From: Botryllus schlosseri
Taxonomy: Eukaryota
NCBI GenBank assembly: GCA_051294905.1
Contig: CM119371.1
Location: forward strand, 7,938,001-8,002,000
Direction: 5' to 3'
DNA length: 64,000 bases
The notes beneath the pieces are model-generated. The model did no database searches. It was not told the origin of the DNA and saw nothing but the letters and a program-made list of their open reading frames with translations. Below, one piece after another: positions 17,516 to 18,256 of the stretch; the stretch's first letter is position 1, and each line of letters starts with the position of its first letter. The position numbers and the translations under genes are program-made.

Positions 17516-18256
17516 ATGAATGCGCTTATAGTATCGATGTGTTATCGCGGAAAGCCGCACCATGTCGAAAATGAAGGAACGTTACAAGACATTCAGATTA
17601 TGACAGATATCTTAGTACAGAAATTCAAATTCAAGACTGAAGATATCAAAGTGTTGCGTGAAGAGCAAGCCACTCTTGGAAATTTTTCCAGAGAGCTTCA
17701 AACGATGGCCGATAGTAGCGCCAAGATAAACTTCATATATTTCGTCGGTCACGGATTTTCATGTCCAAATAACACAAAAGAAAATGATCCTGAAGCTCGC
17801 GATTCCGGATTTGTATTTTATGATAGGCATCTACTCGATGATGATATGTGTGAGCTATTAAAAAGCTTTCGTAAAGATACAAAAAACCTACTCATGTTTG
17901 CGCAGTGTTATAGTGGTAACTCTGCCGATTTGAAATTTCATTTACGAGAAGACGCTGCTTCGCTAGCACTCAAGCGCAAACGAGACGTAAAATCCAAAAC
18001 TGTTCTCATAAGTGCAGTTAGTGACGATCAAATCAGTTGGTGTTTTGAAGACGGTAGTGCTTTTGCAAAGAATTTCAGAACCGTCATACGTGAACACGAC
18101 GAAATCAAATTCTTCGATCTTATGCGTAAATTGCGACAACTAGATAAGAGACAAAAGTGTTCGATATCATCAAGCTTCAAATTGGATGAACACGATCATC
18201 TCATTCGAAAAAGAAGTTTCAGTTGGATAAAATCTCAATGGAAGAAATCGAAATAA
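17516..18256 (+). CDS. Metacaspase-like peptidase (clan CD, C14)
   Basis: NALIVSMCY...G..QD...M...L...F...DIKVL...AT..N; FIYFVGHG (His); DSGFVFYD..LLDDDM; QCYSG (Cys); LISA..DDQ.S. TATATAAG about 35 nt upstream. Confidence 0.88.
   Translation: MNALIVSMCYRGKPHHVENEGTLQDIQIMTDILVQKFKFKTEDIKVLREEQATLGNFSRELQTMADSSAKINFIYFVGHGFSCPNNTKENDPEARDSGFVFYDRHLLDDDMCELLKSFRKDTKNLLMFAQCYSGNSADLKFHLREDAASLALKRKRDVKSKTVLISAVSDDQISWCFEDGSAFAKNFRTVIREHDEIKFFDLMRKLRQLDKRQKCSISSSFKLDEHDHLIRKRSFSWIKSQWKKSK

Follow-up and report, generated by a model that had tools for sequence, protein, structure and literature searches.

A metacaspase-family protease gene with a remodelled predicted S1 pocket on a Polinton/adintovirus-type element of a probable animal host

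Metacaspases are placed outside metazoans in the excerpted texts of PMC3734836 and PMC5756287, and the excerpt of PMC10583209 describes them, among viruses, in giant viruses only, where their role in infection is given as unknown. For adintoviruses, an OTU domain on the family B DNA polymerase (PolB) is a described arrangement, and their virion and accessory genes appear restricted to animals (PMC8502044, in excerpt). Here we describe a metacaspase-like gene in a 64,000-nucleotide stretch of contig CM119371.1 (positions 7,938,001 to 8,002,000, forward strand; this whole stretch is the window). Its membership of the metacaspase family and its status as Polinton cargo can be assigned with high confidence, and it is probably a working-looking protease (MEROPS C14B-like) carried as an accessory gene of an intact, recent element of the Polinton/adintovirus type.

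Among type I metacaspases, the proposed S1 pocket of Trypanosoma brucei MCA2 (TbMCA2) consists of Cys92, Asp95, Ser156 and Asp211, and its allosteric Ca2+ site of Asp173, Asp189, Asp190 and Asp220. Both sites are conserved in the yeast enzyme Yca1, and the acidic S1 pocket of metacaspases accounts for their Arg/Lys specificity (excerpt of PMC4357240). The gene compared with these enzymes is the single metacaspase copy within the window:

17516..18256, + strand: metacaspase-like (Peptidase_C14) gene, 246 aa; open reading frame (ORF), Pfam and PDB searches, AlphaFold2 (AF2) model

The Peptidase_C14 match of this ORF spans residues 4-209 (E 1e-12, 48.7 bits with a cut-off of 21.4) and is far beyond chance; NCBIfam gave a sub-threshold caspase domain match only. 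His79 lies in the motif VGHG (codon 17750-17752), Cys131 in AQCYSG (codon 17906-17908), and the acidic motifs are Q24-D25 and D107-D108-D109. The p20-like and p10-like parts are found in one short chain with a linker of about 10 residues. The first strand of the AF2 model comprises residues 2-7 and the Pfam match starts at residue 4, so the ORF has no prodomain. Neither the prodomain of type I nor the long p20-p10 linker of type II is present, and the protein instead resembles the short metacaspases of viral or metagenomic sequences. C-terminal to p20, positions 152-231 of profile A4, which was built from the six closest sequences of the window protein, align with the Yca1 chain at 260-348 (domain E 2.8e-4), and this p10-like region retains a SxxxDxQxS motif (S166, D170, Q172, S174). 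A basic loop, KRKRxVKSK (residues 153-161), lies between the two parts, with K153, R156 and K159 invariant in the five closest sequences; as a speculation, it might be an autoprocessing site or a nuclear-localisation signal.

By sequence and by its predicted fold, the protein is a metacaspase and not a caspase or paracaspase. A PDB search with the single sequence returned plant metacaspase-4 and -9, Geobacter GSU0716 and yeast Yca1, with no caspase. With profile A4, all 11 PDB matches at E<=0.001 were metacaspases or GSU0716, Yca1 being the best (1.4e-29). The wider profile A2 (57 sequences), which was too diverse for the locus scan, where the narrower A3 and A4 were used, matched Yca1 at 2.6e-77, TbMCA2 at 2.2e-63, AtMC4 at 3.6e-59 and GSU0716 at 8.1e-39, and caspase-1 and MALT1 reached only E 0.006-0.07. 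The AF2 model was computed from a 57-row alignment (predicted local distance difference test, pLDDT, 93.5; predicted template modelling score, pTM, 0.90) and replaced an earlier five-sequence model with a pLDDT of 54.9. In a Foldseek comparison of this model with the PDB, ranks 1-28 were all metacaspases or GSU0716 (TMq 0.66-0.76), with MALT1 and caspases at TMq 0.53-0.59. The top 16 of VIA-align were likewise metacaspases or GSU0716 (Z 21.0-25.2, 202-224 residues aligned, root-mean-square deviation (rmsd) 2.0-3.2), with legumains at Z <=20.0 and caspases at Z <=19.4. In a viral structure library the best matches were giant-virus metacaspases of Fadolivirus, Heterosigma akashiwo virus 01 (249 aa, TMq 0.78, rmsd 2.8) and Clandestinovirus, and the executioner caspase of an ascovirus was found at rank 25 (E 7.7e-5).

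Residues of the window protein were mapped to TbMCA2 through the Yca1 alignment of profile A4 and the statement on TbMCA2/Yca1 conservation in the excerpt of PMC4357240. Residue counts refer to 113 distinct aligned domain sequences, namely the window protein and 112 relatives, drawn from the matches of the exhaustive profile search and from cluster members, with a match of at least 186 positions of profile A1. His79, Gly80 and Cys131, which align to the dyad of Yca1 and AtMC4, are invariant in 113/113 rows. The pocket and Ca2+-site positions compare as follows, with six rows of the subfamily of the window protein counted separately from 104 more distant rows:

TbMCA2 Cys92, S1 position: Cys of GCxND in relatives; Thr22 in the window protein; subfamily T 4, C 1, gap 1; distant rows C 99/104
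TbMCA2 Asp95, S1 position: Asp of GCxND in relatives; Asp25 in the window protein; subfamily D 5, gap 1; distant rows D 103/104
TbMCA2 Ser156, S1 position: Ser of SGHG in relatives; Val77 in the window protein; subfamily V 5, I 1; distant rows S 101/104
TbMCA2 Asp211, S1 position: Asp of DxCHSG in relatives; Ala129 in the window protein; subfamily A 5, S 1; distant rows D 104/104
TbMCA2 Asp173, 189, 190 and 220, Ca2+ site: Asp96, Asp108, Asp109 and Asp138 in the window protein

All of the five closest sequences have the aspartates of the Ca2+ site, as do at least 102/104 distant rows; within the subfamily, Asp108, Asp109 and Asp138 occur in 6/6 rows and Asp96, which by its motif position would correspond to Asp173, in 5/6. 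The canonical acidic S1 pocket is absent: Asp25 alone is kept, and Thr22, Val77 and Ala129 differ. In addition, Trp175 is found on the p10 loop in 5/6 subfamily rows, where distant rows mostly have Ala (QTSAD loop). The intermediate sequences P0009, P0154 and P0015 are mixed, with E or D at the second position before the catalytic Cys (Cys-2) and A or S before GHG. As judged from the alignment, AQCYSG is one visible part of a wider predicted remodelling of the pocket, on a scaffold which otherwise keeps the residues for catalysis and Ca2+ activation.

From these residues the protein is likely to be an active, Ca2+-dependent protease. Because three pocket residues are lost and Trp175 is gained, the expected set of P1 residues is different from Arg/Lys or narrower, and the pocket change would thereby alter the P1 preference; we put the chance of an altered or narrowed preference at about even. 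The P1 Arg of gingipain R is bound by one Asp of the equivalent helix (PMC4357240, in excerpt), so Asp25 alone may suffice for cleavage after Arg or Lys.

A first-pass annotation of this DNA, made from the letters without database searches, had proposed a metacaspase-like protease with an intact His-Gly/Cys dyad, QD and DDD motifs and no prodomain. The metacaspase identity is borne out by the PDB matches of profile A4 and by the Z scores (21-25, with caspases at <=19.4), and grouping with caspases, MALT1 or another clan CD family, which would have spoken against it, was found neither with profiles nor with Foldseek or VIA-align. Dyad and acidic motifs stand in the ORF with its Pfam match at 1e-12, and the positions of the first strand and of the Pfam start agree with the absence of a prodomain. 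AQCYSG does stand in place of DxCHSG and is a trait of the subfamily, with A or S at Cys-2 in 6/6 rows and D in 104/104 distant rows. The suggestion of a possibly altered P1 specificity also holds in so far as the S1 pocket is altered in a way that fits a changed preference (Yca1 alignment, 113-row counts, excerpt of PMC4357240). The single pocket change that had been pointed out is thus genuine, yet three positions differ, and the fully kept Ca2+ site had been missed.

Among 5.8 billion protein clusters, a word-indexed search picked out four relatives (88, 63, 51 and 50% identity), each on a contig of 1.1-2.9 kb. In the five closest sequences 71 columns are invariant, among them those of the dyad and of the Ca2+ aspartates. 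An exhaustive profile search of 1.84 billion representatives gave 4639 proteins at E<=0.001 and six at E<=1e-30; several of the next-best matches are fragments of the subfamily on contigs of 0.5-2 kb, the contigs of the close homologues measure 0.5-4.5 kb overall, and beyond the subfamily the typical match is a protein of 240-350 aa with canonical motifs. Relatives are encoded in 287 of 601 candidate stretches of IMG/VR, where many of the 80 loci kept lie on contigs named GVMAG and seven small contigs without this label also bear hallmark genes of nucleocytoplasmic large DNA viruses. No close relative was found in IMG/VR with profile A1, P0015 or P0009. Bacterial metagenome-assembled genomes (MAGs), mostly of Chlamydiota, hold a few relatives (16 of 26 stretches, found with a single search pattern). 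The best match in JGI metagenomes is only 26% identical, and the best full-length giant-virus matches are 22-27% identical to the window protein.

The nearest well-populated group to the subfamily is the short giant-virus metacaspases, at about 25% identity. In a tree of 97 rows, built by a quick method with Shimodaira-Hasegawa-like approximate likelihood ratio test (SH-aLRT) support and without labelled fungal, plant or typical bacterial references, the subfamily forms a clade (SH-aLRT 99), joined by P0009 (97) and P0015 (83). The subfamily sits on a long branch, and no sister of the clade is supported among the rows from giant viruses, protist-like sources and bacterial MAGs; the tree is flagged for long branches and for outliers in composition. 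A horizontal origin from outside animals follows from the known distribution of the family (PMC3734836 and PMC5756287, both in excerpt). The acquisition from a non-animal or viral source that had been suggested earlier therefore fits this distribution, but the C14 tree names no donor.

Two observations concern viral metacaspase loci more generally. Metacaspase genes beside capsid genes were seen on four of seven hand-picked small contigs but at only six of the 80 loci, and we rejected this association as a selection bias. On one giant-virus contig a full-length homologue of the autophagy protein ATG9 is directly adjacent to the metacaspase gene (L057:6758-8395, - strand, Pfam 4.7e-119).

The element around the metacaspase gene spans 1523-20833 (19,311 bp) and has the following features:

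1523..1736, + strand: left terminal inverted repeat (TIR), starts AGTAGTATATAAG; duplication CAGGGT at 1517-1522
6885..10751, + strand: PolB, 1288 aa; polymerase and exonuclease motifs read from the sequence
10780..11400, + strand: A32/FtsK-type genome-packaging ATPase (Pox_A32 2.2e-9)
12291..13295, + strand: retroviral-type integrase (rve) with C-terminal chromodomain (rve 8.8e-13, Chromo 3.8e-11)
15423..16700, + strand: double-jelly-roll (DJR) major capsid protein (MCP), animal Polinton type (DJR-like_dom weak, E 0.029; relatives)
16697..17158, + strand: adenain/Ulp1-like cysteine protease, 153 aa (weak: ASFV S273R protease E 0.025; HW and Q...CG motifs align)
17474..17485, + strand: TATA-like box TATATATAAGTG, about 31 nt upstream of the metacaspase ATG
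18767..18838, - strand: tRNA-Ala (anticodon TGC), between the metacaspase and E2 genes (Rfam 73.4 bits)
18949..19428, - strand: UBE2D-like ubiquitin-conjugating enzyme (E2), intronless (UQ_con 4.3e-47; human UBE2D2 1.9e-45)
20620..20833, - strand: right TIR, starts AGTAGTATATAAG; duplication CAGGGT at 20834-20839

Over their 214 nt the inverted repeats show 100% complementarity, the element begins with AG and ends with CT, and the 6-bp CAGGGT stands directly outside both ends. TIRs and 6-bp duplication are the signature of a Polinton/Maverick insertion, and since the TIRs are identical this copy is young. All marks of a Polinton/Maverick of the adintovirus type are present, namely TIRs, 6-bp target-site duplication, AG..CT ends, PolB, rve integrase, ATPase, DJR capsid protein and adenain-like protease. 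The metacaspase gene follows the capsid gene and starts 358 nt downstream of the adenain-like protease gene on the same strand. In GC (0.381) and third-position GC (GC3, 0.356) it falls inside or near the values for the rest of the element's genes, so it is not a recent addition of foreign composition.

The PolB ORF has an OTU-like cysteine motif near aa 195-205; it gave no match to a Pfam PolB model and no PDB sequence match. A Vsr-like endonuclease appears to be inserted at about aa 797-871 (phrog_13076, E 0.0029), between the exonuclease motifs and polymerase motif B and C-terminal to a motif-A-like DCNALY. The E2 retains the HPN...Cys active-site region, and the element is predicted to hold both a ubiquitin-adding activity (E2) and a likely ubiquitin-removing one (the OTU-like motif on PolB). 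Eight further ORFs are without a significant Pfam family (2850-3434 (-), 4543-6132 (+), 11839-12303 (+), 13452-14282 (+), 14279-15028 (+), 17131-17451 (+), 18342-18683 (+) and 19594-19920 (-)), and those also run against PHROGs or PADLOC had no match there; one of the eight is presumably the penton protein. No paralogy was detectable among the three small ORFs around the metacaspase gene, and the unassigned ORFs gave no gasdermin-like or defence partner in Pfam (E<=0.1) or PADLOC (E<=0.01). The 10-mer TATATAAGTG of the TATA-like box is also present at both element termini, and it was rejected as a promoter-like motif on account of its frequency: with one mismatch allowed it has eight matches, a number reached by 22 of 100 shuffles.

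The host of the element is probably an animal. For the capsid protein, the language-model clusters closest to it come from Arthropoda and Echinodermata, which is a lead only, and its nearest species-named relative is from the limpet Patella caerulea (29% identity). A Ty3/gypsy retrotransposon lies in the flank (25400-29900, - strand) with a gag-like zinc knuckle, aspartic protease, reverse transcriptase, RNase H and integrase; it is spread over several frames and is therefore probably decayed, and a full-length relative of 1372 aa in an ENA assembly is 98% identical to it. Among its 120 listed relatives, 30 bear species names, all animals (32-54% identity), including a priapulid, a bryozoan, insects, nematodes, rotifers, an oyster, arachnids and fish. 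No host gene was recognised among the 81 flanking ORFs of at least 75 aa, none of which has a Pfam family at E<=0.001.

The first-pass annotation had placed the gene in a Polinton of an animal genome and had noted a second protease next to adenain. TIRs, termini and the CAGGGT copies at both ends confirm the Polinton, and the distance of 358 nt agrees with the second point. The animal genome is supported indirectly, through the OTU-PolB arrangement (excerpt of PMC8502044), the limpet relative of the capsid protein and the 30/30 animals among the named Ty3/gypsy relatives. As to content, the element had been classified correctly, but its E2 enzyme, OTU domain and tRNA had been overlooked. The roles suggested there for the protease, cleavage of host defence proteins or triggering of lysis, are conjectural.

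At least part of a 2.9-kb stretch around the metacaspase gene was found in 20 sequencing-run rows from 12 studies, 15 of which hold half or more of its sampled words (58-93% of sampled 31-mers). These rows carry five organism labels and one marine metagenome label. The near-identical copies under five labels could mean either that the labelled organisms are close relatives or that the element has spread between species. The MCP-protease-metacaspase stretch recurs on contigs from two other runs; a record of 3857 nt from run X1 covers 14804-18658 with 11 differences. A contig of run X10 switches to another flank exactly at 1523, in agreement with the element end and with other insertion sites. 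The RNA label of run X10 is a guess, and its coverage, even across the whole element, resembles that of DNA; none of the runs on record as RNA contains the 2.9-kb stretch. In the single-cell RNA run X24, about 3% of which was read, 59 reads fall on the element, which shows that parts of such elements are transcribed in the organism of this run. The reads cluster at 5964-7267, 10528-11179 and, in opposite orientation, 18352-19655, which look like the 3' ends of a 529-aa ORF, of the PolB/ATPase region and of the E2 gene; this pattern hints at a partial, perhaps early-type, transcription of integrated copies.

In the reading we favour, the metacaspase would be a monomeric, Ca2+-activated endopeptidase made in the viral phase of the element, perhaps as part of the late (virion-side) gene block, which precedes it on the same strand. 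Its S1 pocket, with Asp25 kept, Cys, Ser and Asp replaced by Thr22, Val77 and Ala129, and Trp175 gained, would accept P1 residues other than Arg/Lys or a narrower set. The likeliest role would be limited proteolysis of host or element proteins, influencing cell fate or virus release, beside the ubiquitin-related genes of the element (OTU-PolB and E2), and host caspase inhibitors would not be expected to control it. We propose only tentatively, at somewhat less than an even chance, that it serves to manipulate the host or to release virus in the viral phase, with a suicide or defence role as its main alternative. Several points weigh against this picture. With three of four pocket residues changed, the enzyme could be poor or inactive despite its intact dyad, and the pocket mapping combines a sequence alignment with a predicted model; according to the excerpt of PMC4357240, no substrate-bound metacaspase structure existed at the time of that paper. 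The late-gene assignment is taken from gene order, the host is identified through indirect signs, and among the 59 element reads of run X24 (about 3% of the run read) none falls at 13788-18351, which comprises the capsid block and the metacaspase gene.

The absence of RNA reads on the gene would also suit a functionless cargo, captured by chance, decaying, and intact only through its young insertion; with TIRs 100% identical, an open frame by itself proves little. Homologues at 88, 63, 51 and 50% identity, however, keep full-length frames or long stretches, with the 71 invariant columns among the closest sequences, and the distant P0007, P0009 and P0015 fall into a supported clade (SH-aLRT 99, 97 and 83). 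Kept frames, invariant columns and clade together point to long purifying selection on the subfamily, and we consider a decaying passenger very improbable. A cargo that kills or arrests the cell on superinfection, to the benefit of the host population and of the integrated element, seems to us distinctly unlikely, though less so. Caspase-like proteases act in prokaryotic immunity, which counts in its favour. So does the proposal that Polinton-like viruses serve as antiviral defence in protists (excerpt of PMC12220804). PADLOC, however, gave no match for the metacaspase at E<=0.01, domain and paralogy scans recognised no sensor or effector partner beside it, and the element, which has a capsid, protease, ATPase and polymerase of its own, resembles a complete virus.

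An equally small probability is given to a pseudo-protease or scaffold, which would keep the fold and the Ca2+ site, lack catalysis and act by binding, for example as a decoy of a host factor. Such a protein could explain why three of four S1 residues depart from a canonical set kept in 99-104 of 104 relatives, and pseudo-orthocaspases with kept pockets exist in bacteria (PMC6426788, in excerpt). These known pseudo-variants, however, lose the His/Cys dyad and keep the pocket, the reverse of the situation here. His79 and Cys131 are invariant in 6/6 subfamily rows at 34-88% identity, which is hard to explain without catalysis. The reading as a working accessory protease could be extended to an animal-infecting Polinton/adintovirus lineage that has long carried a giant-virus-like, Ca2+-dependent metacaspase with a rebuilt S1 pocket, a P1 preference unlike that of caspases (Asp) and of metacaspases (Arg/Lys), and a place outside the host's caspase-inhibitor network. 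Together with E2 and OTU it would form a toolkit rewiring host protein turnover and cell death, and it would be the first metacaspase-family gene resident in animal genomes via germline integration. We regard this full scenario as doubtful, although clearly less so than the rival explanations above.

Our literature searches brought up no paper that connects metacaspases or caspases with Polintons, Mavericks or adintoviruses (supplementary gene tables lay outside this search), and the words 'peptidase', 'apoptosis' and 'metacaspase' do not occur in the main text of the adintovirus paper in the form excerpted (PMC8502044). What sets this case apart is a metacaspase carried by a new class of vehicle, with a remodelled pocket and probably in an animal. 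The element would represent a route for the entry of the metacaspase family into animal genomes, and at 19 kb it offers a far simpler system than a giant virus for asking what a viral metacaspase does. Its natural pocket variant, which retains one Asp, differs at three positions and has an added Trp, provides a test of how P1 specificity is set in clan CD. With an E2 enzyme, an OTU domain and a metacaspase, the element may manipulate both proteolysis and ubiquitination.

Of the known systems, the short giant-virus metacaspases resemble the window protein in their length of about 240-270 aa, the order of p20 and p10, the lack of a prodomain and the short linker; they share its dyad and Ca2+ aspartates and are its best matches in the viral structure library. 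They differ in keeping the canonical GCxND / SGHG / DxCHSG pocket, at an identity of about 22-27%, and belong to genomes of hundreds of kb, in contrast to the 19-kb integrating element described here. The type I metacaspases Yca1, Candida glabrata MCA1 and TbMCA2 are the best profile matches and also lead the fold comparison (Z 21-25), with Ca2+ site and dyad aligned, but have an N-terminal prodomain or region crossing the active site, a longer p20-p10 linker and an acidic S1 pocket (excerpt of PMC4357240).

Adintoviruses and Polintons share the vehicle, with OTU-PolB, rve integrase, A32 ATPase, DJR capsid protein and adenain-like protease (PMC8502044, in excerpt); the accessory genes named for comparison are PLA2, gasdermin-like and cupiennin-like genes and the OTU domain on PolB. 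Adenain, the maturation protease, belongs to clan CE, whereas the metacaspase of the element belongs to clan CD. The ascovirus executioner caspase and the animal caspases and MALT1 have the clan CD fold and the His/Cys dyad in common with it. The ascovirus enzyme, too, is encoded by a virus of an animal system, but it is a far weaker match (rank 25, E 7.7e-5), and caspases and MALT1 reach the family profile only at E 0.006-0.07, compared with 1e-39 to 1e-77 for metacaspases. Bacterial pseudo-orthocaspases show the opposite pattern, with the dyad lost and the pocket kept (excerpt of PMC6426788), whereas the metacaspase of this element keeps its dyad in a changed pocket.

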